DNA from: a virus
Lineage: Duplodnaviria > Caudoviricetes
IMG/VR virus record: IMGVR_UViG_3300037249_000287
Coordinates: 21,025 to 85,024 of that record
Length of the DNA: 64,000 nucleotides
Reading direction: 5' to 3' (one strand)
A model generated the notes under the pieces. That model was not told the DNA's origin. It saw only the letters and a program-made list of their open reading frames with translations, and did no database searches. Position numbers and translations under genes: made by a program. This document shows, piece after piece, positions 7,329 to 34,262 of this stretch (within the stretch, counting starts at the first letter, position 1; every line of letters starts with the position of its first letter).

Positions 7329-10300
7329 ATGGCAGATACATCAGCAACAATCATCGCTGCGTCGCTTAACAGTGACGACCTTGAAAAGTCGATTAACAAA
7401 CTTGTTGAAACCGTTGCAACGAAAACAAAAGCAATGGCAGACAACTTTACGTCGGAGGTCAAGCGTATGGAGCAAGCCGTCAAAAACCTTGGCAACATTA
7501 AGATTGATTCTGGTGGAACAGCAGATGGCGGTTCTGCAAAACGTGCGGCTGGCTTTGAAAAACTCCAAAAGTCCGTTAATGACGCAAGCGCATCATTACA
7601 GAAGCACCAAAACGAACTTGTAACGCTAAAAAATGTGCTTGGCTCTGCACAAGAACAAGAAAATTCTTTTTTACAGGCAAAGCAAAACGCGGCAAACACT
7701 ATTTCCAAGGAGAATGAGTTGTTGCAACGTCAAGAGCAAGAGTTGGCTAACTTGAAGAGCCAACAGTCGTCTTTTGTTGGTACAAATCAACAAACTACTG
7801 CATCAATAGACAAGCAAAGAGAGTCTGTCGCAAACTTAAAAAACGAAGTTAAGTATTGGCAATCTGTCGTGTCTCAAATGCAGAGTGGTGACAAAAAACT
7901 TAGGTTTAACTCACTTTGGCTTGGCGATACAACATCAAAGCAGGGGCATGACATATTGGATGTTGCTAACAAGCTGTATTCCATTATGCAAAAACTTGGA
8001 ATGGAGACAGAAAAAGGTTCTGCATCAACTTCGCAGGCAGTTAGGGCAGCAGAAGAACTTGCTAAATACTACAAGATTAGTAGAGAAGAGGCAGAAAAAC
8101 TAATCCTTTCGGTACAAGAATCACCATTGGCTCGCGGGAAATACACCACACACTACGACACACGCTTTGGTCTTGATAATCTCACAATGCAACAAAAGAC
8201 TATTGATGATTTTGCATTGAGAAAAGAATTGGCACAAGGCAAACTAACATTTGAAACAGACAATCTTACTCTTGCTAACAAGCGTCTTGAAGAATCTGAA
8301 AAGGCTGTTGCTTCCGCATCATCACAAAGGTCTCAACTCGATTCTCAAATAGCCGCAAAAGAAAAAGAGATTGCAGAGACCAAGGTGCGCATTACTGCTG
8401 CAACAAAAGAACAGTCCGATGCTGAAAAGAACGCAAGCCAAGCGTCACAAGTAAGAGCGAATGTTGAATCAAAGATTGTTGCACAAGAAAAAATCATTTC
8501 TGACACAAGACAACAACTTACATCAGCAACAAAGGCTTTGGCAGATGCTGAAAAACAAACGGCTGATGGTGGTAGTTCAAGACGCACATCAAAGCAGAAA
8601 GAGGAAGAAATGCAGGCTAAAGCAACAACGCAGGCTTATAAAGAACAAAAGACTGTTGTTGGCGAATTAGCAATGTCCTTTGACAACCTTAATACGGCTA
8701 TAACAAAATCAAATAGTAAACTTGCAGCCAAGTTTGACGTTACAGAACAGCAAAAGGTTCAACAACTTGAAGCACAAAGAACTGCAATCGAAGACAAAAT
8801 TGTTGCACGCCAAATAGAAATAGACGAATCGTATCGTTCGCAACTTGCAACGCTTTCAAAAACGAGAAGCGAACTTGAATCAAAGGCAAATCTCACTTCA
8901 AAAGAACAAGCAGATTTAAAGCACGTTGCAACCGAATGGGAAAGAATCAATAAGATTGTTCACGACATAAGCAACAGGCCAATTGTTGCGACAGATGACA
9001 CAACTGGCAATCTTGGTCGATTACAACAGCAATTAATTGAGACAAACAAGCAACTTGACGAGTCGAGAAAGCGCATTCAAGAAATGAACTTTGAAAGAGC
9101 AAAGATGTATGATGGCTCGCTTTCGGGTTTGGTTCAGAATGCGCAAGCAACAATGAAGTACCAAAACGACACTTTGAAAAAGTCGTTTGAAGATTTGTTG
9201 AAAAAGCCAACGCACGATGTTGATGAAATGCGTGCAAAGATGGAACGCCTACAAACTTTCCTTAACAACATCAAGCCGTTAAATATTTTCTCTCCCGAAC
9301 TTATTGCAAATGGTGAACGCGCAATAAATAAGTTAAAGAATGAGATACAAAAGTTTAACGACAAACCGACAAAGCAAGCATTTGCAGATGCATTAAAATT
9401 GCCTGACAGAACACAGAGTGAAATTATTACAAAGATAAATAGAATACGCGATGCTATAAAAGGTGTTGAGGGTACTAAGATTGTAAGCGAAACCGAAATT
9501 GCAAGGGCAAAAAGCCTTATTGACAGTTTGCGCGATAAGTGGGATAAACTATATAACGCACCAAAGGATAGAAAGTTGCGTATAGAATTTGCTGATGCTC
9601 TGAAAATGCCTACAAACAACATCGACGAAATTGCAGCAAAGTTGATGCGCTTACAGTGGATTCTACAAGAAATGCGTGGTATGCAAATACTTTCGCCAGA
9701 TAAGATTGCAACAGGAAACCAGCAGATAAGTGTTCTTTTGTCGAAACTTGAGGCAGAAATGAGTCTACGACAACAAATAAATGCTGTCGAGCAGGCTGAT
9801 ATGCAAAACACGCAAAAAAGGATTGAACTTGAAGCGAAATATGGCGAGGAAGTTGCAAGGGCTGCTAAAATTGCAAACGATTGGCTGCAAAAGAATAAAG
9901 AAGCCACAATACTAAACAAGGAAGGAACATTTGTTATCCGTGACCCAAAAGAAGGTCAAATAGTCGGCCAGAGCATAGAGGCACAATTACTTGCTTACAA
10001 AGCTATTAATGGCGAGTTAAATCTTGAACTTGAGGTGCAAAAAGCAATCGCGAACACTGTTAATTCTATTGCACAGGCCGAACAAAGAAGACAGATACAA
10101 GCACAAGCACAACCAGCTGCAAACAAGTCGTTTGCGGATTATGAAGATTTGCGTACTGCTATTGCTGCTGTTTTACGTATTCGCGAGAACGAAGTCTCTT
10201 TGGCTAATTCTGAAGACGCATCATACAGGGCATTATCGCTAACGTTGAAGCAATTAAAACAAGCCTACGAAAGTCTTGGTGCAAGCCAGAGAAAGAGTGA

Positions 10301-13300
10301 AAACGCGGATGTTTTAATTGCAAGCATTCACGAAACGCAACGCGCTATGCAAGAGATTCAAAAGCAAATGTCGCGTCCAGTAAACCTCGCAAACGCATTG
10401 GCTTTGCCTGAAAAAACAATCGACGACATTTCTTACAAGGTGCAAATGCTTAGAGCGTATGCACAAGGCATTAATATTGAAACAAACGCTGGAAATGAAG
10501 AGTTGCGTCGTGTAATGTCTACTATTGAAAATCTAAATGACGGACTAAAAAACGCTCAAAAGACAACAAAGCAGATTACAATAGAGTCAAATGGTATTAA
10601 GTTTGACAATATTGCAAAAATGCCAGCGGATGGGCTAAAACAGGTTGGTGAAAAAATTAAAGAGGTTAAGCAATACATTAACGAACTTAAAAACCAACCA
10701 ATTGTTGATGAAAAGAACCTTAAACGTACGGAGGCTTTGTATGATAGGCTTATTAAGCAGTCTCAAAAACTCAACGACACGAAAGGTACTCATTCAAACG
10801 TCAACGACGCGCTGAATGTTCGTGTAAAAACGCTTGATGAGATTACAAAGAAAATGCAACGACTGCAAGCCATTCGCCAGAACCTTGACATAAACAAACA
10901 AAAGGCAGATATAGACAGAATTAATGCGGCTTTAGGTGAACTAAAAAAACAACAAGACGAAGTTTTGCAACGCAATGCAAATATGATTAAGAGTAACAAT
11001 ACTCTTGGCCGTTCTTGGAACTATATGAAAAATCGTCTTGCATTCTATTTTACAGTTGGTGCAAGTACGCAGTTCATCAAGAATCTTATTGAAGTCCGTT
11101 CGCAATATGAGATGAACGAAAAAGCGCTTGGCATTTTGCTTGACAGCGCATCGCGTGGCACTCGTATTTTTAATGAGTTATCACAGATGTCGTTGGTTTC
11201 TCCGTATACGCTTATTGAACTTTCAAGTGCTGCAAAACAGTTGACTGCTTATGATATTGCCGCAAAGGACGTTGTTGACACGACAAGGCGTTTGGCTGAC
11301 ATGGCAAGTGCGGTTGGTGTTCCTGTAGAACGTTTGACTTATGCACTTGGTCAGATTAAGGCATACGGTTATCTAAACTCACGCGATGCACGTATGTTTG
11401 CCAATGCTGGTATTCCGCTTGTTAAGCAACTTGCAGACTATTATTCGGAACTGGAAGGAAAGATGGTTAGCACCGCCGATGTATATGACCGAATGAAAAA
11501 GAAGGCCATCGACTACAACGATGTTATGAAAGTTGTAACAAAGATGACAGACGAAGGAGGAAAATTCTTTGATTTCCAAGCAAAGATGGCTGATACACTC
11601 AAGGTTCGTCTTGCAAACCTTACGTTGGCGTGGAACAACATGCTTAACGAATTAGGAAAAAGCAACCAAGGAACTCTTACAACTGGAATAAAATCGCTGA
11701 CTGTTATATTTAGACATTGGCGCGAAATATACAGGATTTTATCAACACTGATTGTTGCATTGGGTGCTTATAAGGTTGCGACAATGCTTGCTGGAATGAC
11801 AACAAAATCATCTATTGGTAGTAGTGCTGTTGCGTCTTGGCTCAGTCTTGCAAAAGGTGTAAAAAGCGCAAAGGACGCAGTTGCTTTGTTTAGTCTTACA
11901 GTAAAATCAATTCCTTTTACAGGATGGGTTACGATGATTGCCACTCTTGCGTCATATTTCTATCTGTTCAACAATTCAACGGACGGTTTAAAACAGAAAC
12001 TTGAAGACATCGCAACAGCATTTGATGGTGTAAGAAAAGAAATCACCGACCTTTATGCGGATGCCTTGAAATCCGACAGCATTGGCTCGCAATTAACAAA
12101 GTTGCGTGACATGCTTGAACTTGCACAAACGGAATTAGGTGTAACTATTCCTATTAAACTTGAGGAGGTGAACGAAGGTAATGTCAAACAAAAACTTAAA
12201 GAGGTTAAAGATATAATAGACAATTATCTTAATTTCTCGCAAGAATTTTCCGAAGCGGCGGCTGGAACAAAATTCAACGAGTTAATGAATGAGTTTGGCG
12301 CAAACGCAAGGTCTACATACACTGGCATATCGGAGTCGATAAACACTGTGGTTGTCGCTCTTCAAGACCTTGTTGATAAAGGTAATGCAAGCAAGCGGGA
12401 CATCGAAATACTTAACGAACTAACTTCTGGTCAAAAAGAAGATGAATCTCGCATAGAATACTTACAGCGTCTTGTACGTCTTTACGAAGAACTTGGGTTA
12501 GTTGGTAAAAAAGTTACAACACCATCGCTTTCGTTCTTTAGTTCTTCCACAGACAACATGAACGAACTCACAGAGAAACAAAGTGAACAACTTGACAGAC
12601 TTGGCATAAAAAACAAGCAGGTCTTTGAAAATATGCTCAAGGATGTTCAAGGCTACTACAGTTCGTCATCAATTGCACAATATCAATTTGAACAACAGGT
12701 AGAGCGTGTTGCAAAAAGAATTGACATAAACAATATACCAGTAGAGCAGCGAACATTGAAACTTAGTGCTGCCATAAACGAAGAAGCGTCGTTAAACAAT
12801 TGGAATCAATTTGAAAAAGAATTTGCAAGACAAGTTGCTAACGAAAAGTTTGGTACTACGATTGAGATTTCCGACGAATCAAAGGGTGTTGCAGAACAAG
12901 ACCTAAAGGATTGGCAAAAAAAGCAACAGGAATGGGCTGCAAAAAATGGCATAACGATACCAATCAATTTTCAAACAAACGACACAGAAATTTCTTACGC
13001 TAAACGTATGCTTCAAGCGGCAAAAGACGCTAAAGAAGAGGTTGAGGTACAGCAAAGGAAACTTGCCGTTGGCACTGGTTCTCAAGATGCTGTAGATGCT
13101 GCAAAAAAGGCTTACGAAAACGCAAGGATTCTTGCTAAAAACGCAGGTGCAGACCTTGAACAACTTGATAAAAAAGCGAATGCAGCAGCAAGGAAAGCGG
13201 CAAAAGCAGCAGAAACAGAACTTTCTAAGGCATTAAAAGACGAACTTTCAACCATCGAAAAAGTTCGTTCTATCTACAAAGAACTTACAAAAGAAGGTGC

Positions 13301-16010
13301 TTCTCATGCTGATGCAATAAAATCAGCAACTGAGGGATGGGAAGAAACAGTCAATGCCATCAACAAGGTTTTGAATAAAAATGGATTAAAAGGCTTAAAC
13401 CTGAGTGATTTTGTTGGTGTTGAAAATCCAAGAGAAATATTAAACGCATTACAATCGCAGCTTGACGAAATGGTTAAGCGTGGCGCTAAACCAGCAGAAA
13501 TAAAAGTTCTTCAAGAAAAGATTAAAACAATAAAAGTTGATGCTGAAAAGTACGACCTCACCAAGATTACCAAGGGTTTAAACAATGAACTTGACCGTCT
13601 AAAAGACGAGTATGAGTTGGCTGTTTCGTTGGATGCCGACCCAGAGTTGGGTAATATGTTTGCCGACTGGATGGGTATTGATGTAAACGATTTGCCAAGA
13701 ACCGCAAGCGAGTATGCAGAGCGTGCATCAAAGATACTAAATAGTGAGCTTAAAAACTTAGGGGCAAAGACAGAACTTCCAAGCGTGCTCAATATTACGG
13801 ATGACGATATGCGTGCGTTTGAAGAAAACAAAGTCTTTACGGACAAACAGCTTGAACTTGTCAAAAAGGCAGTTGAAGCCGCAAGAGGTTTTCAGAGAAA
13901 AGAAACGGAGGAAAGAATCAAGGATTGGGACAAGTTGCTTGAAAAGTATGCTGAATACGAAACAAAGGTCAATAAGATTCAAAATGATGCCGTTAAGGAG
14001 CGTGTAACGTTTGCGCAACAGTTTGGAAATGATGAAGAAAAGAGTTTAGCGCTTAACCTGCAAACTCAGATTCTTGCTGCTACAGACCCACAAGAGAAGC
14101 AAAAGTTAATCCAACAATTGCAAGAACTTGTAAAGAGCATTGCGGGTGATGATAAAGCAAAGTTGAATATTGTCGCATCAATCAACACTGGTGAGGCAAG
14201 AAATCTGGCAAAGAATGATTTTGAAAACTTCCAGAAATCACCCGAATGGATTACCGCCACTGGTGAACTTTCTGGTATGACCAACAAAGCTATCAATGGA
14301 TTGATTGCGAGTTTGGAAAAGTACAAGAAATCGGCAAAGAATCTTGACCCAAAGCAGATTAAGAACATAAACAATGCGCTAAAGAACCTATACAAGGAGC
14401 AACGCAAGAACAATCCTTTCGGTGCTATTGCCAATATGCTCGACAAAGCAAAGGAGCGCATGGATGATGTTTTGCCAGAAATGGTGTCTATAGTATCAAA
14501 GATAGATGCAATTGTAAGCAAAATCAACACTGGTGAAGCTACCGAAGAGCAAATTAAAGAACTTGAAGAATTAAAAGAACGTTTAGTGCAACTCTCCAAG
14601 GTTGGAGAAGTTTCAGCATCTGAATGGGTTGATTCTATAATGTCCGTTTACGGTGCTATCAAAGGTGCAATTAGTCTTTTCGATGACTTGGCGAAAGCCA
14701 TTGGTGGAAGCAACGCATCTGATATAGACAAGCTGTTTAGTGTTCTTGATAAAGCAGGTCAAGGCGCACAGGTTGGTGCTGCTTTTGGAGGTTATGGCGC
14801 GGCAATAGGTGCTGTTGTTGGCGCAGCTACTGGTTTCATTGAAACGTTTGCAGAGGAATTTAGCGGGAACAAGTCGATAACTGAAAAAATTGAACGCTCA
14901 ACACGCGAAGTTAAGAATCTTGAACTTGCTTATATAGATTTACAACAAGCAGTTGATAGGGCTTATGGGACTGCTGTTATTGGCGCAAGACATGCAACTT
15001 TAGCAAATAAAGAATTACAGCTTGCGGAGTTGCAGCGTCAGATACAGCTTGAAAAGACGCGAAAATCAAAGTATCGTGATAATGAAAAGATTCTTGAATT
15101 AGAAAAACAATACAAGGAATTGTTCTATGAAATACAAAACGGCTACAGGGAACTTGTTGATGACCTTATGGGTACTGATGTTGCCAGTTTCGCCGAAAAC
15201 CTTGTATCTTCAATGATTGATGCTTTCAAGCAAGGTGAGGACTATATGCAGGTGTTCAGCGACAAGTTTGACGAAATGATTGACAATATGATTATGAAGT
15301 CGATTGTCAGCCGTGTTGTTTCTCAATATCTTGACCAAATATGGGATAGTATAGACCAAAGGATTAATGAACGTTCCAAAAAAGAAAGTGAAGAATACGC
15401 AAAGGCGCAAGAAATATCGCGTGAAGTTGAGCAAAAATCAGACGAGCAGATAAGGCAAACCATAGCACTTTTGAATGGAGATGGTGGCGCGTTAATCGGA
15501 TATTACAAGAATCCTATATCACAAGAAATGATTGATGAATACAGGAGGTCGGCGATAGAAGAAGAAAAGGCTGCAAAAGCACGCCTTGACGCAGCTTCCG
15601 CATTTACTGGCTCTGACGTTGACTACATTATGGGTAGAATAACAGAGGTTATGCCAGAGTTAGGCCAAAAGTTGAAAGATATTCTTGGTGAATATTACAA
15701 ATTTGGCGAAAGTTCGGAAACACAGTTGTCTGCGCTGCAACAGGGATTACAGGGCGTGAGCGAGGAAACGGCTGGGGCTGTCGAAGCTTATCTCAACGGT
15801 ATGTCGCAGCAGGCTTATCTTAGAAACGATTTGCTTACTCAAATTCGAGACACGATAATGTCATTCGATATGGATGTTCAACTTGGCGTATTCTCGCAAA
15901 TGTTGTTGCAATTACAAAATAACTACATCGTTATGCAATCAATGCAATCAATGATGGAGAATTGGACTGTTCCAAGTGGAAATGGTATTCGCGTAGAATT
16001 ATTATCTTAA
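7329..16010 (+). CDS. Tail tape measure protein (2893 aa)
   Basis: Long coiled coil; tape-measure domain around 11090-11700 (SPYTLIELSSAAKQL...LTYALGQIKAYGYLNSRDARMFANAGIPL); hydrophobic segments; position after the chaperone. Confidence 0.92.
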   Translation: MADTSATIIAASLNSDDLEKSINKLVETVATKTKAMADNFTSEVKRMEQAVKNLGNIKIDSGGTADGGSAKRAAGFEKLQKSVNDASASLQKHQNELVTLKNVLGSAQEQENSFLQAKQNAANTISKENELLQRQEQELANLKSQQSSFVGTNQQTTASIDKQRESVANLKNEVKYWQSVVSQMQSGDKKLRFNSLWLGDTTSKQGHDILDVANKLYSIMQKLGMETEKGSASTSQAVRAAEELAKYYKISREEAEKLILSVQESPLARGKYTTHYDTRFGLDNLTMQQKTIDDFALRKELAQGKLTFETDNLTLANKRLEESEKAVASASSQRSQLDSQIAAKEKEIAETKVRITAATKEQSDAEKNASQASQVRANVESKIVAQEKIISDTRQQLTSATKALADAEKQTADGGSSRRTSKQKEEEMQAKATTQAYKEQKTVVGELAMSFDNLNTAITKSNSKLAAKFDVTEQQKVQQLEAQRTAIEDKIVARQIEIDESYRSQLATLSKTRSELESKANLTSKEQADLKHVATEWERINKIVHDISNRPIVATDDTTGNLGRLQQQLIETNKQLDESRKRIQEMNFERAKMYDGSLSGLVQNAQATMKYQNDTLKKSFEDLLKKPTHDVDEMRAKMERLQTFLNNIKPLNIFSPELIANGERAINKLKNEIQKFNDKPTKQAFADALKLPDRTQSEIITKINRIRDAIKGVEGTKIVSETEIARAKSLIDSLRDKWDKLYNAPKDRKLRIEFADALKMPTNNIDEIAAKLMRLQWILQEMRGMQILSPDKIATGNQQISVLLSKLEAEMSLRQQINAVEQADMQNTQKRIELEAKYGEEVARAAKIANDWLQKNKEATILNKEGTFVIRDPKEGQIVGQSIEAQLLAYKAINGELNLELEVQKAIANTVNSIAQAEQRRQIQAQAQPAANKSFADYEDLRTAIAAVLRIRENEVSLANSEDASYRALSLTLKQLKQAYESLGASQRKSENADVLIASIHETQRAMQEIQKQMSRPVNLANALALPEKTIDDISYKVQMLRAYAQGINIETNAGNEELRRVMSTIENLNDGLKNAQKTTKQITIESNGIKFDNIAKMPADGLKQVGEKIKEVKQYINELKNQPIVDEKNLKRTEALYDRLIKQSQKLNDTKGTHSNVNDALNVRVKTLDEITKKMQRLQAIRQNLDINKQKADIDRINAALGELKKQQDEVLQRNANMIKSNNTLGRSWNYMKNRLAFYFTVGASTQFIKNLIEVRSQYEMNEKALGILLDSASRGTRIFNELSQMSLVSPYTLIELSSAAKQLTAYDIAAKDVVDTTRRLADMASAVGVPVERLTYALGQIKAYGYLNSRDARMFANAGIPLVKQLADYYSELEGKMVSTADVYDRMKKKAIDYNDVMKVVTKMTDEGGKFFDFQAKMADTLKVRLANLTLAWNNMLNELGKSNQGTLTTGIKSLTVIFRHWREIYRILSTLIVALGAYKVATMLAGMTTKSSIGSSAVASWLSLAKGVKSAKDAVALFSLTVKSIPFTGWVTMIATLASYFYLFNNSTDGLKQKLEDIATAFDGVRKEITDLYADALKSDSIGSQLTKLRDMLELAQTELGVTIPIKLEEVNEGNVKQKLKEVKDIIDNYLNFSQEFSEAAAGTKFNELMNEFGANARSTYTGISESINTVVVALQDLVDKGNASKRDIEILNELTSGQKEDESRIEYLQRLVRLYEELGLVGKKVTTPSLSFFSSSTDNMNELTEKQSEQLDRLGIKNKQVFENMLKDVQGYYSSSSIAQYQFEQQVERVAKRIDINNIPVEQRTLKLSAAINEEASLNNWNQFEKEFARQVANEKFGTTIEISDESKGVAEQDLKDWQKKQQEWAAKNGITIPINFQTNDTEISYAKRMLQAAKDAKEEVEVQQRKLAVGTGSQDAVDAAKKAYENARILAKNAGADLEQLDKKANAAARKAAKAAETELSKALKDELSTIEKVRSIYKELTKEGASHADAIKSATEGWEETVNAINKVLNKNGLKGLNLSDFVGVENPREILNALQSQLDEMVKRGAKPAEIKVLQEKIKTIKVDAEKYDLTKITKGLNNELDRLKDEYELAVSLDADPELGNMFADWMGIDVNDLPRTASEYAERASKILNSELKNLGAKTELPSVLNITDDDMRAFEENKVFTDKQLELVKKAVEAARGFQRKETEERIKDWDKLLEKYAEYETKVNKIQNDAVKERVTFAQQFGNDEEKSLALNLQTQILAATDPQEKQKLIQQLQELVKSIAGDDKAKLNIVASINTGEARNLAKNDFENFQKSPEWITATGELSGMTNKAINGLIASLEKYKKSAKNLDPKQIKNINNALKNLYKEQRKNNPFGAIANMLDKAKERMDDVLPEMVSIVSKIDAIVSKINTGEATEEQIKELEELKERLVQLSKVGEVSASEWVDSIMSVYGAIKGAISLFDDLAKAIGGSNASDIDKLFSVLDKAGQGAQVGAAFGGYGAAIGAVVGAATGFIETFAEEFSGNKSITEKIERSTREVKNLELAYIDLQQAVDRAYGTAVIGARHATLANKELQLAELQRQIQLEKTRKSKYRDNEKILELEKQYKELFYEIQNGYRELVDDLMGTDVASFAENLVSSMIDAFKQGEDYMQVFSDKFDEMIDNMIMKSIVSRVVSQYLDQIWDSIDQRINERSKKESEEYAKAQEISREVEQKSDEQIRQTIALLNGDGGALIGYYKNPISQEMIDEYRRSAIEEEKAAKARLDAASAFTGSDVDYIMGRITEVMPELGQKLKDILGEYYKFGESSETQLSALQQGLQGVSEETAGAVEAYLNGMSQQAYLRNDLLTQIRDTIMSFDMDVQLGVFSQMLLQLQNNYIVMQSMQSMMENWTVPSGNGIRVELLS

Positions 16011-28074: not shown

Positions 28075-29220
28075 ATTTAAGCACCTAACTAAGCATTTTC
28101 TTGGGAATTTTTAACTTAAAAAAGAAAAAAACGCATTTTAAGCCGTTCTAAGCCGTTTTCTTTTGCCCTGCGGTAACTTATAAGGGAAACACCATAAAAA
28201 GCGTTCTACAGGGCTGAAAATGCCCTTAAAACGAATCCTATAACATCATACACTACCACACAAAACACAAAAACACCGATTTCTGGCAAATCTACACAAT
28301 ATTACACACAGCACAATGACAACATTTACAGCTGACGCATTTCACCTCTACAATCCCTTCGCGATTTTCTTCCTTGACGCAAATTTTATTTTTTTTCGTT
28401 TTTAATTTTCTTCTTTAAAAATTTTTTTTCTTTTCGATTTTTTGATTTTTAAAAACAACATTGTTTTGACCATATAGATTTTGCTGGTTCTAACCCCTCC
28501 CACCCCTATATCGTTTTTGTGTCTCCGCCAGTTACTTTGCACCCCTTTTTATTTCCTACCTTTGCATGCTGAAAAATAGAATTAGAAAACGTTCATTTAC
28601 TAAAAATAGCTATATTTGGGCAGTTATTTTCAGATGCTGAAAAACAGAAATAAGATAATATATTAATACGTAAACTAATTTAAATAAGTATATTTTTCTT
28701 TTGCCAAATATTAATTATAACTATCTTTGCAGTATATTATCATATTATCATATTAAAACAATAAACTAAACTAAACTAACAAATAACAATACAATAATAT
28801 TAAAATAACAATACTAAACTTATAACTTATAACTTAAAATAAACTTATAATAATAATTTTCTTATATAATATGTATATAATATATATATTGTAAATAATT
28901 AGTCAATTTAGAAAATATATACTTAATGATATAGTAAAAAATAATTATATAAAATAAGATATTTTGTGGAATATGTTTTCTTATTTATTTACACTAAATT
29001 AATATAACTTATTTATTTTCAGTAATTTATATATTTGTCGGTTGTAAATAATAAATTACAATATTTTCGTATTATTTTTATCAAAAAGTATTTTATTATT
29101 ACATTTCTTTATTGTCTTAACATATTTTTAATACGATTTTAACACTAAAAATACTGATTTTCAGATAGTTACGTATTAATTGTTAAAAACATATTATTTC
29201 TTGCAAATATCAAAATATCG
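28075..29220. other. ORF-free, strand-skewed and extremely AT-rich control region between the divergent arms
   Basis: No ORF of 60 aa or more; C/A-rich tract 28240-28350; T-rich tract 28380-28450; ACCCCTCCCACCCCT near 28492; near-pure A/T at about 28660-29160. Confidence 0.7.
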
Positions 29221-29223
29221 TCG

Positions 29224-29231
29224 TACCTTTG
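29224..29231 (+). promoter_or_regulatory. -7 promoter (TACCTTTG) starting the rightward arm
   Basis: TAnnTTTG-CAAC at the end of the AT-rich block. Confidence 0.65.
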
Positions 29232-29235
29232 CAAC

Positions 29236-30240
29236 ATCAAAACGGAGGACAGCCGTTTAAAAAATGTTCAACGAGGACGAGGGAAAATCAAGGTATTCAT
29301 TTACTGCGAATAATCACCTTCCGACTACATTATAGCAATCATTATAGCTATTTTGTTGTATGTTCTTTAAAACACTGATAACAAGCTATTTTGCCCAAGG
29401 GTGAAAAGGTAGTGAGGAGACCGTATTTTAGAAATGATATGTATATCAAAAGTTATTAACGGAAAATCTATTTTTTAGGGAGTATAAACGAAATAACCTG
29501 CGGCCACAAAATAGGACTGTTATCAATTTACCATACAGGAGAAAAGGTGCAGCAGTTAGTACTATTCGAAGTGTACCGAAAAGACTGTTAACTGAATAAT
29601 GCTAAAAGATATATGTGTAACAAATCTTTGCAACCGAAAACGGATAAAAGAGGGAAAAATAGAAATATCAACTTTAAACTTTTCCGCTAATTCGGCAGGA
29701 GCGCAGACCAAGGGAGAAAGATAGTAACTACATTTGCAAGTGACTGAAAAGGTAGCCTCGAGCAGGTTACATATTATAGAATAATAGTATATGATACTTT
29801 TTAGGTAGCGAGGACACGGACAAGGTATAATGATATATTACCTAAACATGTAGACGGGAGGCCGAAGACTTCCTGCATGTAATAATCTAATTTTAGATTA
29901 TTTGGTGATAAAAATTTAAATAAGGAATAAAGCAGTACTTTATTTTCGTTTATTCAATACCTTTTGCACTTGGTTGCAAAGATAGGTATTTTATTGAAAA
30001 TGTTTTAGCCGAGGTGCAGGAAGGCTGAAACATAATAAAAAGGTAGGACTTGGCGCTGACAACAATAAAAACGAAATATAGATTTTTGATATTACGACAC
30101 TTATTTTTGTGTTAACAGATACTGAAAAGGTGCAGAAAAGTACACTAATTATTTAGCGTGCAGCCTTGGTGATTTTCGCGACTTTTGCCCAAGGTACAAT
30201 TTATTTATAATTCATTTTAGTATTAATTAAAAAACAAAAA
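29236..30240 (+). ncRNA. Candidate ~1-kb non-coding RNA or very long leader
   Basis: Promoter, then 1 kb with no sizeable ORF, many hairpins and repeated GAAAAGGT motifs. Confidence 0.4.
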
Positions 30241-30256
30241 TTAGGAGGTCACAATT

Positions 30257-30823
30257 ATGACAAAGAAAAATTCTAACATCAGTAAAATTAACGCTCTTCG
30301 CAGCAAGTGTCAGCCCGTACATGCCGCAGCAGGTACATTTAATCAGGCAATAAAGTCCCTGCAGGGTCTTGAGTCGAAGCATGCCGAGGTCTTGGAGGCA
30401 CTTGGTATCGAGTCCTTCGGTTTTAAAAACGTTTGCGCAGGCTGGGCAGACGCTCTCCGTATCAATGTTGACGGCAAGGACGTCATGGGTCTCTATATGT
30501 CCGAGACTGCAAAGGTTATTGTTTACGAAGGCGAAGAGCCCAAGGAGGTAAACATGTACGAGAAGGTCGAGACAAAGAAGGGCGTGAAGTACGTCTCCGT
30601 CAAGGTACGCACTCTCACGACTCCGAAGTTGTGGGATGATGGCATTATTCTGGAAGGTCTCTGTCAGTCGGCCGAGCTTGCCGAGGCGCAGAAGGAGGCC
30701 GCAGACGCTGAGGCACACAAGGCCGACCTGCTCGCCAAGGGTGAGGTGTATATTAAGAAGACCGCCAAGGGCACAGACGGCAGCATTACGACAACTTTCG
30801 AGCAGGTAGAGGTCGAGGCATAA
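30257..30823 (+). CDS. Early hypothetical protein, probably highly expressed
   Basis: 188 aa; AGGAGG 8 nt upstream; G/C-ending codon bias. Confidence 0.7.
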   Translation: MTKKNSNISKINALRSKCQPVHAAAGTFNQAIKSLQGLESKHAEVLEALGIESFGFKNVCAGWADALRINVDGKDVMGLYMSETAKVIVYEGEEPKEVNMYEKVETKKGVKYVSVKVRTLTTPKLWDDGIILEGLCQSAELAEAQKEAADAEAHKADLLAKGEVYIKKTAKGTDGSITTTFEQVEVEA

Positions 30824-30950
30824 TTATAACCATGTGACAAAACTGCACAGTCGTATGTTGGTAGGTACATTATTGTGCGGGGCAGCGTTATGCTGCCTCG
30901 CTTGTATAAACAAGTTGGAAAATAGTATTAATCAATAAACAGTCAAGAAA

Positions 30951-31163
30951 ATGAAAACGAGATTTACAGTCAAGGCCGTAAAGTGTGCAAGCGCAAACGG
31001 TCGCAGTTATGTACGTTTTTGCAAGCCGCAGGCTGCAAAGTTATGGTGTGTGTTCATGGGGTCGGTCTGCCTTGCCTACGGGTTGTCGCAGGGTTTAGCG
31101 CAGGAGTGTGTCAACGAATTAAGTCAGCATGGGCAGCATGTTGAGATGCGTGAGATGAAGTAA
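30951..31163 (+). CDS. Hypothetical protein
   Basis: 70 aa. Confidence 0.45.
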   Translation: MKTRFTVKAVKCASANGRSYVRFCKPQAAKLWCVFMGSVCLAYGLSQGLAQECVNELSQHGQHVEMREMK

Positions 31164-31264
31164 TTAAGCGGGGCGAGGTGGGCGTGTTCACTATCTGCAC
31201 GCCCGCCAGCCGCAAACATACGCAAACATTAGTATTAATTTAAAAAACATTAGGAGGCTTTATT

Positions 31265-32878
31265 ATGATTAAAGTACAAAATTTAAGCACGGGTGAGGTA
31301 ATTAACGTTTTGAACGTTGTAGTCGAGAACAATCAGATTATCAGCGAGGCACGCCGTCCGCACAAGGGCTTGCGCTTCTACAATTCATATCCAATGATGC
31401 TGCCAGCAGGTGAGTCCGAGGATGGTCGTGACCTGCATACGCTGGCCGAGGGCTGGGTCTTGGCATCAAAGGGTGCAAAGGGTGCGGGCGAGAAGAAGGA
31501 GCGCAAGCCCCGTCAACCCAAGCAGGAGGCACAGGAACAGCCCAAGAACAAGACCAATTTGGAGAAGTTTGCAGAGCTTAAAGTCAAGTACCCTGATACT
31601 ATTCTGCTGTTCCGTCGCGGTGACTTCTATGAGGCATACGGTGACGATGCCGTGACCGTTTCTGAGGTGTGCGGTATCACGCTGACAATACCCAACGACA
31701 ACGGCAATGGGCTGGCGGGATTCCCGTATCATGCACTCGACACCTATTTGCCAAAGCTGATACGTGCGGGGCATCGTGTGGCTATCTGTGACGGCAATGG
31801 CGAGCCGCAGGTACGTGAGGAGGAAGCTGTCAAGACCAACGATGAGCAGGAGGTCAAGGATGATGTCAAGCAGGAGGAGTCTGTACCTATGCAGGAGGAG
31901 CAGCCGCAGGATGTCAACGATGATGATGTCAACGCGATTGCAGCCATGTTGCTGAAGTTGAAGAAGGGCAGCGCACCTGTCAACAAGGACATGGTTGTTA
32001 AGATTGTTAAGGACATACTTGCAGAAGAGTTGCCAAAGGTGCAGCCGCAGGATGTGCAGCACACAATCAAGGTGGCCGACCTGCCCGCATACAAGTGCCC
32101 GAAGGGTACTAATCCGAAGTTGCTTGAGTTGCTGTTGACAATGGTTGTCAACGACCGCGTTATAGGTCGCTTCCCTTGGTTGTTTGGCCCCGCAGGTTCT
32201 GGTAAGTCAACGCTTGCAAGCAAGGTAGCCGAAGCACTGAATATTCCGTTCTATTCAGTGTCAAGTTTGCAGCAGAAATACGAGCTCGAAGGCTATACGG
32301 ATGCTGTTGGCGAGTTTGTGCAGACCGCATTCTACAAGGCTATGGCCGAGGGCGGTGTATTCTGTTTCGATGAAATCAGCACCACATCGGGCGAGGTGCA
32401 GGTTGCTTTCAATACGGCGGCTGCGCAGCTGGTGTATAACTTCCCGAAGATGGGCATGGTCAAGGCACATGAGAACTTCCATATAATTGCCTGTGACAAT
32501 TCAACGGGTCGTGGCGGTGACAAGCGTTATATCAGCCGTTTTCAATTAGACGCTTCAACGCTTGACAGATATAACTTTGTAGAGGTCGACTATTCTGATG
32601 AGCACGACCTGAATATGGCCGCAGGTGACAAGGATTTGGTACGCTTTATGAAGGATATGCGCAAGGTGCTTGATGCAAGTAACACCACATATCTTGCTAC
32701 ACCTCGTGCAAGTAAGGCTATCAAGGCTTTGCAGGCTACTGGCATGAGCGACAAGGATGCTCTGTGGTACGGTCTTTGCAGCGGTTGGAACAAGCAGGAC
32801 ATCCGCACATTTGCAAGCAAGTTGAGTGGGTCTACAAATTGGCACAAGGCATTTGACGAGATTGTGTGCGGTCTTTAA
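31265..32878 (+). CDS. Fusion of a MutS domain I (mismatch-recognition) module and a MoxR-like AAA+ ATPase
   Basis: 31559-31794: [22 protein letters not shown]...[27 protein letters not shown]. ATPase motifs [14 protein letters not shown] and [12 protein letters not shown]. Confidence 0.85.
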
Positions 32879-32916
32879 TTGAATTACAAACTTCTTAAAT
32901 CATAGGAGATTCGGAT

Positions 32917-33720
32917 ATGAAGAATTTCATGAGGTACGAAAGCGTTGCGGAGTTGTCTAATGCACTCCGCAATGCAGAGCCGTTAAAGGTGTGGAAAGAT
33001 TCTTGGGAGCGTGCTCGCAAGGATATGTCAGATAAAGAATGCAAGGATTTTGCGGGTTGTACGTTTAATGAGGCTTTTGAGTTGCTTGATAAGGGTGACG
33101 CTGAACGTGCTGCAATGATTAAGGCAGAAGGCGAAATCTTGAACGAATCACAGGGCGGCACGATGCCAAAGATAGAGGTTGGTGTATATGGTTGCATTCC
33201 ATCAGTACCTAATTATCTGCGTGGCGTACCTACAAACATGATGCGTGTTATTCGTGAGCCAAGGCGCAATCCTATCATTGACGTGTACGTTGATACTGGC
33301 ATTTCTGCTTTCACCAAGTTAAAGGATGCTGCTATTGCTACGGCAAAGATAGCAAACGTTATCACGGCGGTTGAAATGAGTGGCGTGCGTGTTAATCTGT
33401 ATGCTGTATATGGAACGAAAGAAGGAAGTGATGCTGCTGGTTTTGCAGTAAAGATTAAGGAGGCTAATTCACCACTGAACCTGCTTAACATAGCATTCCC
33501 AATGACAAACAGTGCATTCTGTAGGGTTGTGTCACTCCATTGGCAGGAGTGCAACTCTGATAAGGTATGGGGTGGTCATGGTAGCCTGATGTCAGTAAAG
33601 AAGATTGCAGACGCTTTCGATTTGGAAGGGCTGACATTATCCGTACAGGACACGATTGATAGTCGTGCAAGCATTGAGAGTATTGTGAAGAAGTTCAATG
33701 AATATTTAAAGAACAAGTAA
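32917..33720 (+). CDS. VWA-like partner of the MoxR ATPase
   Basis: GCIPSVPNYLRGVPTNMM then IDVYVDTGIS (degenerate MIDAS); directly downstream of the AAA gene. Confidence 0.65.
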   Translation: MKNFMRYESVAELSNALRNAEPLKVWKDSWERARKDMSDKECKDFAGCTFNEAFELLDKGDAERAAMIKAEGEILNESQGGTMPKIEVGVYGCIPSVPNYLRGVPTNMMRVIREPRRNPIIDVYVDTGISAFTKLKDAAIATAKIANVITAVEMSGVRVNLYAVYGTKEGSDAAGFAVKIKEANSPLNLLNIAFPMTNSAFCRVVSLHWQECNSDKVWGGHGSLMSVKKIADAFDLEGLTLSVQDTIDSRASIESIVKKFNEYLKNK

Positions 33721-33721
33721 T

Positions 33722-34045
33722 ATGGAGATACAGGATTATGTAGGAAAGTTTGCAAAGGTTGCAGGACACTACGGGATGATTGACAATGTGTATGGTAGCC
33801 GTTTGGGATTTATCTGGTCGGATAAAGATAGCTGGACTGGCGAGTTGGTTGACGTTACAAACGTTGAGGTTTTAACCAAGCAGGATGATGTTGCAAAAGC
33901 GTGGCTGAGTTCAAAAAACTATCTACTGCGTGAGCGTGCAGCATTAAAGGCACGTATTGCACGCAAGTTGGCGATAGACAACCAACAGATGTTAGGTGAA
34001 TTGCTCGACTTTGTTGTTAGTTGGATTAACCGCTTGGGTGAATAG
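33722..34045 (+). CDS. Hypothetical protein
   Basis: 107 aa, operon-packed. Confidence 0.55.
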   Translation: MEIQDYVGKFAKVAGHYGMIDNVYGSRLGFIWSDKDSWTGELVDVTNVEVLTKQDDVAKAWLSSKNYLLRERAALKARIARKLAIDNQQMLGELLDFVVSWINRLGE

Positions 34046-34262
34046 GGCGTGCGTTCACTATCAGCGCGCCGATTGGGTGTTGACGCATATCACAACAAAC
34101 GTTGTGTCGACTGCGGCATGTGTGGAGCGAGACCACCGCACCCGCAAAGATTTTGTGTTTTTTGATTAATACTTGTGTCCGTTGGTGGTTGTGACAACTA
34201 CCGACGGACGTTTTTCAAAAGACACGAACAAACCGAATTTAGTAATTAAAAAATAAATTGAT

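Follow-up and report, generated by a model that had tools for sequence, protein, structure and literature searches.

Why would a tailed bacteriophage join the mismatch-recognition domain of MutS to an AAA+ ATPase? This question is raised by one gene pair in a 64,000-nucleotide stretch (the window) of virus record IMGVR_UViG_3300037249_000287 (Duplodnaviria; Caudoviricetes), which comes from a bovine gut metagenome. The record is complete (85,024 bp, direct terminal repeats, CheckV completeness 100%), and the window is its right-hand 64 kb; positions are counted from the first nucleotide of the window, and both genes are on the plus strand. The first gene (31265–32878) encodes a 537-residue ATPase that contains MutS domain I (MutS-I). 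The second gene (32917–33720) starts after a gap of 38 nucleotides and encodes one 267-residue partner of the DUF7192 family (Pfam PF23822, E = 2.9e-23). Our analysis showed that MutS-I is an optional in-frame cassette located in a disordered linker, not a defining part of the machine. The anatomy of the protein and the evolutionary picture described below are well supported, and we hold them with high confidence; the function of the cassette is addressed more tentatively.

The anatomy of the ATPase was analyzed using an AlphaFold2 (AF2) model, which was built on a 126-row alignment and has a mean predicted local distance difference test (pLDDT) score of 81. The protein begins with one β-rich domain (residues 1–66, 31265–31462; pLDDT ∼94). 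This N-terminal domain is conserved in the phage family whether the cassette is there or not, and BLAST of residues 1–95 finds 86 of 120 homologues; residues 1–66 matched no Pfam or PHROG family and gave no usable ESM Atlas match, which is not evidence of a new fold. The domain is connected to MutS-I through a disordered basic linker (residues 70–94). The linker contains the basic motif RKPRQPK (residues 80–86, 31502–31522), which is conserved family-wide regardless of the presence of the cassette; Pro85 is found in at least 90% of the aligned sequences. The motif could serve as a short linear motif or a DNA contact.

The MutS-I fold covers residues 98–180 (31556–31804; pLDDT ∼94). It is supported by Pfam (MutS_I, E = 2.3e-24, residues 100–185), by a MutS match in the PDB (E = 1e-14) and by structure comparison (VIA) against about 48,000 PDB representatives, which aligned it with MutS-β with a Z-score of 13.0 and a root-mean-square deviation (rmsd) of 2.8 over 94 residues. 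The domain is truncated after VAICD, covering positions 5–93 of the 113-position Pfam profile. It contains GDFYE (residues 119–123, 31619–31633), the Phe-x-Glu mismatch-contact motif; Phe121 and Glu123 align on F36-x-E38 of E. coli MutS (aligned chain residues 14–102). Downstream of MutS-I is one acidic, Gln-rich disordered linker (residues 186–219, 31820–31921; pLDDT <50), and the region of residues 183–222 contains 16 Asp or Glu and five Gln residues. The AAA+ core (residues 284–537, 32114–32875) follows, with two helices before it. Pfam domains MutS_II to MutS_V are absent from the 537-residue protein; therefore, the protein is not a MutS but carries the domain I module alone. The complete 85,024-bp genome contains only one MutS_I, and neither MutS_V nor the MutL C-terminal domain was found in it. 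A preliminary description, made from the nucleotide sequence alone, had read this gene as an N-terminal domain of ∼70 residues, MutS-I with intact F-x-E, acidic/Gln linkers and one MoxR-type ATPase, followed directly by a VWA-like gene, with neither MutS ATPase or clamp domains nor MutL. Pfam, the AF2 model and the genome scan for MutS_V and MutL bear out this reading; for the VWA-like gene, the agreement is at the level of the fold, with NorD as the best match.

The status of MutS-I becomes clear when the family is compared. In a set of 123 sequences (the query and 122 homologues), a MutS-I-like module is present in 18 and absent from 105, including the nearest relatives, whose AAA+ cores are 98% identical. 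The N-terminal domain, the linker and the AAA+ core are common to members with and without the cassette. Mapped on the tree of the AAA+ cores, the presence of MutS-I requires at least seven changes (gains or losses). The query cassette shares 96% identity with the one in P0004, a protein with its core in another subclade, but only 63% with the one in P0001, although the core of P0001 belongs to the query's own subclade. The combination of this cassette and the N-terminal domain recurs in P0122 and P0193, there attached to an AAA+ core of a clearly different subfamily. Judging from the N-terminal lengths in the 126-row alignment, the slot holds no other large insert.

Contigs from four other bovine-gut runs were compared with the gene. 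In three of them, which belong to three different studies, the cassette was observed across its junctions, over 339 nucleotides with four differences in X2 and X3, and over 402 nucleotides in X10. The cassette-less joined form occurs in the same three runs; its joint leads from 31528 to 31807, with 17 nucleotides in place of the 278 nucleotides of the cassette (31529–31806). As also seen in the protein alignment, the difference amounts to 87 codons and is in frame. The cassette-less joint encodes exactly QPKQ-ESVKQ-EEQVRE, as in the cassette-less proteins. Because assemblies from three other studies carry the cassette junctions beside the cassette-less joint, the fusion is real and polymorphic, not an assembly artefact. 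The preliminary description had allowed that most homologues might lack the MutS-I part, and that the fusion could be a one-off or an artefact; most homologues indeed lack it, but with 18 carriers the fusion is not a one-off, nor is it an artefact. Direct copies of AAGCAGGAGG, coding for Lys-Gln-Glu, flank the cassette site at 31520–31529 and 31868–31877, and the 17-nucleotide replacement of the cassette-less alleles holds another. Repeats of such low complexity may favour exchange of the cassette in frame.

In searches with the cassette, MutS domain I of Bacteroidaceae and other Bacteroidota was found at 60–63% identity, and one 26-residue stretch in the C-terminal half of the domain is identical (26/26) to a host MutS. 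By this resemblance, the cassette derives from the MutS of Bacteroidales, which are probably the hosts of the phage. In the tree of MutS-I modules and Bacteroidales MutS (108 columns), which is too poorly resolved for a count of captures, no single supported clade unites the ATPase-fused cassettes.

MutS-I is also found in several other settings. It is fused to ParB_N and HTH_ParB in proteins of 394–404 residues encoded by ∼58-kb phages; one example is encoded at L009:8001–9185 of a 58.6-kb phage. In the same phage, genes for an ADP-ribosyl glycohydrolase and a 999-residue protein with an ADP-ribosylating-toxin domain were noticed in the vicinity of L009 10265–14401, beside the portal and terminase genes. 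Other fusions join MutS-I to MPTase-PolyVal and to HTH_39. One 497-residue protein (L011:8001–9494) in a Bacteroidaceae metagenome-assembled genome contains a tandem MutS-I pair, and its gene adjoins those of ArdC-N/MPTase, PcfJ and PcfK; an NAD-dependent ligase and a giant methylase/helicase protein are also encoded in the flanks, and the whole resembles a conjugative element's leading region.

Finally, MutS-I exists as free-standing proteins of ∼100–125 residues, which make up ∼20 near-full-length clusters. Two complete sister phages (78 and 87.6 kb) encode a free 108-residue MutS-I with intact GDFYE (L001:10949–11275 and L016:11064–11387) and with its own conserved N-terminal extension of ∼25 residues. 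These genes sit a few kilobases downstream of a cassette-less ATPase/DUF7192 pair, in the same arm. Each of three complete sister genomes contains exactly one MutS-I; it is free in two of them and fused, in the degenerate form described below, in the third. That MutS-I is fused in one genome and a separate gene of the operon in others (fusion and fission) points to a functional linkage between MutS-I and the pair.

The motif is retained to very different extents inside and outside the ATPase family. GDFYE is kept in 99 of 100 MutS-I copies outside the family: in 38/38 of the 370–411-residue class (nearly all ParB-fused; one of them, P0126, is a piece of MutS to judge from Pfam domains and tree position), in 8/8 other copies and in 53/54 small free-standing copies of mobile elements. 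In the ATPase-fused copies, it is kept in 9 of 18. As judged by this conservation, the retention of GDFYE indicates selection on the DNA-contact motif.

The AAA+ core matches AAA_5 of Pfam (E = 4.1e-11, residues 306–419). Walker A (GPAGSGKS, residues 308–315, 32186–32209) and Walker B (FCFDE, residues 366–370, 32360–32374) are invariant in the alignment. Asn412, Arg425, Arg435 and Arg481 are invariant in 39 sequences; they were assigned to sensor 1, the arginine finger and sensor 2 by position rather than by structural superposition. The nearest folds of the core are CbbQ2 (Z 20.1; rmsd 3.2 over 238 residues) and NorQ (Z 19.8). The next AAA+ rows, Mdn1, dynein and the sigma-54 activators, score ∼15.7, about four Z units lower, and Foldseek agrees in matching the core to NorQ (E = 5e-12). 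Owing to the AAA_5 match, the lead of CbbQ2 and NorQ, and the invariant Walker and candidate sensor and arginine residues, the modelled ATPase is assigned to the MoxR class of AAA+ proteins (CbbQ/NorQ-like). A clamp-loader reading, suggested by weak matches to phrog_168 and phrog_5846, was rejected since the fold is nearest to the MoxR members. PADLOC returned only weak generic P-loop matches for the ATPase (IetA, 3e-5); the partner and the free MutS-I gave no match.

Like the ATPase, the partner was modelled with high confidence (AF2 pLDDT 95). It contains one helical N-terminal part, one conserved Pro-rich segment (residues 92–108) and one von Willebrand factor A (VWA)-like domain (residues ∼115–267, nucleotides ∼33259–33717). 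The best match of the last is the NorD VWA domain from the NorQ–NorD complex (Foldseek E = 1.5e-5); the VIA comparison with NorD gave Z 6.7 and rmsd 5.7 over 169 residues, in the range of middling Z values. The first 50 rows of the VIA list consist almost wholly of VWA-type domains or domains with a metal ion-dependent adhesion site (MIDAS), and the MIDAS domains of Rea1/MDN1 stand with NorD among the best fold matches. A conserved MIDAS metal site (DxSxS...T...D) was not found; the columns of D126-T-G-I-S130 are unconserved in the 142 homologues. Due to the middling Z values and the unconserved MIDAS motif, we describe the partner as a predicted VWA-like, divergent domain rather than a canonical VWA. 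Gly60, Gly92, Met108, Glu153, Lys181 and Arg203 are invariant in the same 142 homologues. The most conserved part of DUF7192 is the Pro-rich segment, G..P..P.YL.G.P..M, which precedes the VWA-like domain; together with Glu153, Lys181 and Arg203, it may form the surface or segment that engages the ATPase ring.

Prediction of a 1:1 complex between the AAA+ part and the partner gave a median score of 0.56, compared to 0.12 for the best control, with partner pLDDT of at least 79 and agreement between runs of at least 0% of contacts. Of 80 solved complexes, 58 attain the mark for such predictions, as do two of 110 mismatched pairs; passing scores of 0.60 or lower came from only seven of the 80 solved complexes and from both passing mismatches. 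The prediction thus lends some weak support to a contact between ATPase and partner, and likeness to the solved NorQ–NorD complexes may explain the pass.

The pairing of the two genes is a matter of observation. A gene-neighbourhood survey, which the preliminary description had proposed, found DUF7192 directly 3′ of the ATPase gene in 44 of 57 IMG/VR loci; several of the other loci end at a contig edge. These 57 loci, mostly from distant phages, were found with the ATPase alignment (a single-protein scan gave three loci). In this phage group, DUF7192 directly follows the ATPase in every locus, and so it does in the divergent ATPase subfamily (L010). In Staphylococcus phage Sb-1, the module corresponds to orf029, an AAA family ATPase, and orf028, both located in the early region with their own sigma-70-type promoter; a PcfJ-domain gene is present upstream of the Sb-1 pair (L007:72–2120). 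By PHROG, the ATPase is placed in phrog_249 (E = 1.8e-38), labelled 'porphyrin biosynthesis' and equivalent to CobS-like, and the partner in phrog_1909 (unknown). Taken together, these observations indicated that ATPase/DUF7192 is a widespread, early two-gene module of tailed phages. The MutS-I/MoxR fusion is a lineage-specific accessory.

What might MutS-I do on this machine? We tentatively favour a tethered reader of DNA distortion on a remodelling ring, acting at distorted phage DNA and possibly directed against mismatch repair; this is quite possible, although we would not call it probable. The fusion belongs to one lineage of 75–88-kb Bacteroidales phages of the rumen and gut, whose ATPase bears its N-terminal domain on a long disordered linker into which MutS-I is spliced. 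As in its MoxR relatives, the AAA+ subunits would assemble into a ring, on which the VWA-like partner would dock in the way NorD docks on NorQ. Every subunit would then carry a MutS-I head on a flexible tether, so that each ring would have a number of low-affinity heads able to read DNA with mismatches, loops or kinks. Through them, the remodeller, or simply a multivalent shield, could be concentrated where phage DNA is heteroduplex or otherwise distorted, for example at the intermediates of RecT annealing and of homing-endonuclease repair. There, the machine would most likely occupy mismatches or remove host proteins from them, the latter perhaps through the VWA adaptor, as the preliminary description had proposed. 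As the most economical purpose, host mismatch repair would be kept from aborting or nicking the recombination and replication intermediates of the phage. The fusion would be one of several ways of delivery, because the sister phages make the reader as a free 108-residue protein in the same early arm.

Published work provides some background for this proposal. Exchange mediated by single-strand annealing proteins is suppressed by mismatch repair when mismatches are present (PMC2920528). During lytic growth of phage lambda, mismatch repair has little effect, and the reason was stated as an open question (PMC3945230). The MoxR ATPase of phage Bas54 is required to overcome a predicted defence system (preprint 10.1101/2025.11.20.689424), which by analogy offers a precedent for a role in conflict.

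Several observations weigh against a tethered reader. The cassette is dispensable, as seen from its absence in most homologues and even beside 98%-identical AAA+ cores; in the close relative L004, no MutS-I is encoded within 10 kb on either side of the pair. The free-standing forms show that the ATPase is not required by the reader. In one ATPase clade of eight clusters, Phe and Glu of the motif are replaced (G-N/S/Y-D/N-Y-V/I-T, for example GNDYVTF), and one further ATPase-fused protein is truncated. Because the domain is kept in the clade after both residues were replaced, these proteins can do without the mismatch contact. Within MutS, DNA is bound by domain I and the clamp domains together, and domain I in isolation may bind weakly. 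The unconserved MIDAS site of the partner also counts on this side.

The main rival is a passive mismatch shield, in which MutS-I alone titrates or blocks host MutS, fusion to the ATPase provides just early expression and multivalency, and the pair does something unrelated (host takeover, counter-defence or assembly chaperoning). The free ∼100–125-residue MutS-I proteins form a family of their own, with representatives in the two complete sister phages; many phages have the pair without any MutS-I, and the cassette has come and gone repeatedly on the ATPase tree, all of which fits a shield. It fits less well with the fusion of MutS-I at the same linker position to two AAA+ subfamilies (P0122/P0193 and the rest), or with the nature of the only other fused partners seen, ParB, HTH and MPTase, which are DNA-acting or establishment proteins. 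These two points suggest that delivery to a machine matters, and we regard the shield as somewhat unlikely. MutS-I could instead be a generic tether, anchoring the remodeller non-specifically on phage DNA or the replisome, with mismatch recognition being irrelevant. Retention of the domain by a whole clade after loss of Phe and Glu would be expected of such an anchor, and the adjacent RKPRQPK motif could also touch DNA. However, the near-complete retention of GDFYE in non-ATPase copies is hard to explain by backbone contacts alone, which makes the generic tether, in our judgement, quite unlikely.

Other readings concern the protein surface, the reality of the fusion and the label of the ATPase. 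The 26-residue identity to host MutS could mean that the cassette imitates the surface of domain I, and thereby captures or poisons a host protein, be it MutS itself or a factor of repair or replication; but the motif that is conserved is the DNA-contacting one, and we know of no partner that docks on MutS domain I, so that we consider mimicry very improbable. A patchy distribution and one degenerate clade are also what a non-functional passenger or an assembly artefact might leave behind. The same junctions in independent assemblies, the frame that is always kept, the fold predicted with high confidence and the conserved motif speak against both, and little credence is left for them. The PHROG label of the ATPase would make the pair auxiliary metabolic genes for cobalt chelatase, as CobS likewise belongs to the MoxR-class ATPases and pairs with a VWA protein, CobT. 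In the NCBIfam scan, no model of CobS or of any other chelatase was matched (CobN was sought in the displayed gene neighbourhoods only), the partner is DUF7192 rather than CobT, and the context is one of early DNA-metabolism genes; moreover, the same pair is annotated merely as AAA-ATPase in Staphylococcus and actinophage genomes. Of all the readings, we give the chelatase the least weight.

Like NorQ–NorD, CbbQ–CbbO, CobS–CobT and RavA–ViaA, the phage pair combines an AAA+ protein of the same fold subclass (Z ∼20 to CbbQ2 and NorQ) with a VWA-like partner encoded downstream. Different from these MoxR/VWA pairs, it belongs to the early genes of a phage, no metalloenzyme client is encoded in the neighbourhood, and the ATPase has an extra N-terminal domain and the DNA-reader cassette. 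Compared to NorD and CbbO, the DUF7192 partner is much smaller and has no conserved MIDAS motif. The homologous modules of Herelleviridae (the ORF14 region of Staphylococcus phage K; orf029/orf028 of Sb-1) and actinophages have the same gene order and fall in PHROG 249 and PHROG 1909; their ATPases, of ∼370 residues, possess neither the N-terminal domain nor MutS-I.

MutS-I outside MutS has been described by Iyer, Burroughs, Anand, de Souza and Aravind (2017), at that time solely in polyvalent proteins (PMC5512222). In those proteins, too, domain I was removed from MutS by mobile elements, in Bacteroidetes and Firmicutes, and the cassette relative beside ArdC-N/MPTase in a conjugative element matches that setting. 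Here, by contrast, MutS-I is fused to a MoxR ATPase in the early operon of a lytic-type phage; the MoxR-fused, free and ParB-fused forms are not in that report. The 537-residue protein does not itself have the several conflict-related enzymatic domains of a polyvalent protein, since only MutS_I and AAA+ were found in it. In a limited literature library, we found no paper on MutS-I fused to a MoxR ATPase or to ParB, or on free-standing MutS-I, which agrees with the earlier remark that the fusion was not known from any characterised system.

In layout, the ATPase is similar to McrB of type IV restriction (CoCoNuTs, PMC11090510), with one swappable N-terminal nucleic-acid reader, a linker, an AAA+ ring that falls within the same broad clade (McrB, Z 13.1) and a partner. 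It is not a member of that group: its core is a Walker-type MoxR core, its partner contains no recognisable nuclease, and it is encoded by a phage rather than the host. The accessory proteins of retroelements (Wu et al. 2018, PMC5758913) are likewise small, MutS-related and associated with phage elements that create mismatched intermediates. Different from those systems, this genome is without reverse transcriptase and hence has no such retroelement; a link to diversity-generating retroelements was rejected on the same ground.

Phage MoxR/VWA pairs are common, and the MutS-I graft gives the first concrete hint of where a DUF7192-type machine may act, namely on DNA. The circulation of host MutS-I with a strictly kept motif, in no fewer than five formats, among the phages and conjugative elements of Bacteroidales may matter more than the fusion itself, and extends the only published case, the polyvalent proteins. 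MutS-I domains are thus candidate means by which phages and plasmids cope with the mismatch repair of their hosts. More boldly, Bacteroidales mobile elements may have turned a mismatch-recognition domain of their hosts into a portable module against mismatch repair, used as a free 108-residue protein, on ParB, within polyvalent proteins or as six copies on one MoxR/VWA remodeller, and either occupying mismatches or stripping host MutS from phage intermediates; we consider this version speculative and clearly unlikely as it stands. If true, it would answer how mismatch repair is neutralised in lytic growth (PMC3945230). The MutS-I proteins, small and easy to express, are candidates for agents that naturally inhibit or titrate mismatch repair; inhibitors of this kind would be relevant to the mosaicism of phages and to homeologous recombination, and they could find use in recombineering where the host has active mismatch repair. 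The co-circulating alleles with and without the cassette provide a ready-made natural comparison, and together with the portable, motif-intact MutS-I family, they make the open question directly testable.

As for the surroundings of the pair, each gene is preceded by one ribosome-binding site, AGGAGG at 31252–31257 (7 nucleotides 5′ of the ATPase ATG) and AGGAG at 32904–32908 (8 nucleotides 5′ of the partner ATG); direct reading confirms the AGGAG-type sites given in the preliminary description. Both are strong Shine–Dalgarno-type sites, although the phage host is probably of the Bacteroidales, which rely little on such sites. The pair had been placed at the head of the early arm. It is near the head of the rightward arm, but two short open reading frames (ORFs; 30257–30823 and 30951–31163) come first. 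The window also encodes RecT and many HNH endonucleases, both as previously noted, together with one sliding-clamp homologue and methyltransferases; this setting of early DNA metabolism counts in favour of the tethered reader. No cultured relative came up when 24 kb was compared with 50,697 phage records by megablast; those records contain only distant homologues of the ATPase and the partner. Parts of the gene are present in two runs labelled metatranscriptomic, which are flagged as probably DNA.

The structural region of the window contains one single ORF of 2,893 residues (7329–16010, plus strand). Between the leftward and rightward arms, the divergent region includes an AT-rich zone (28500–29250); its GC content falls to 0.12 over 250 nucleotides (28751–29000), a stretch that may be an origin or a promoter cluster. 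Compared to ∼0.38 in the remaining phage, the GC content is 0.44–0.56 at 30250–34250, which covers the first genes of the rightward arm including the entire ATPase gene; the raised GC content thus extends beyond the MutS-I cassette.

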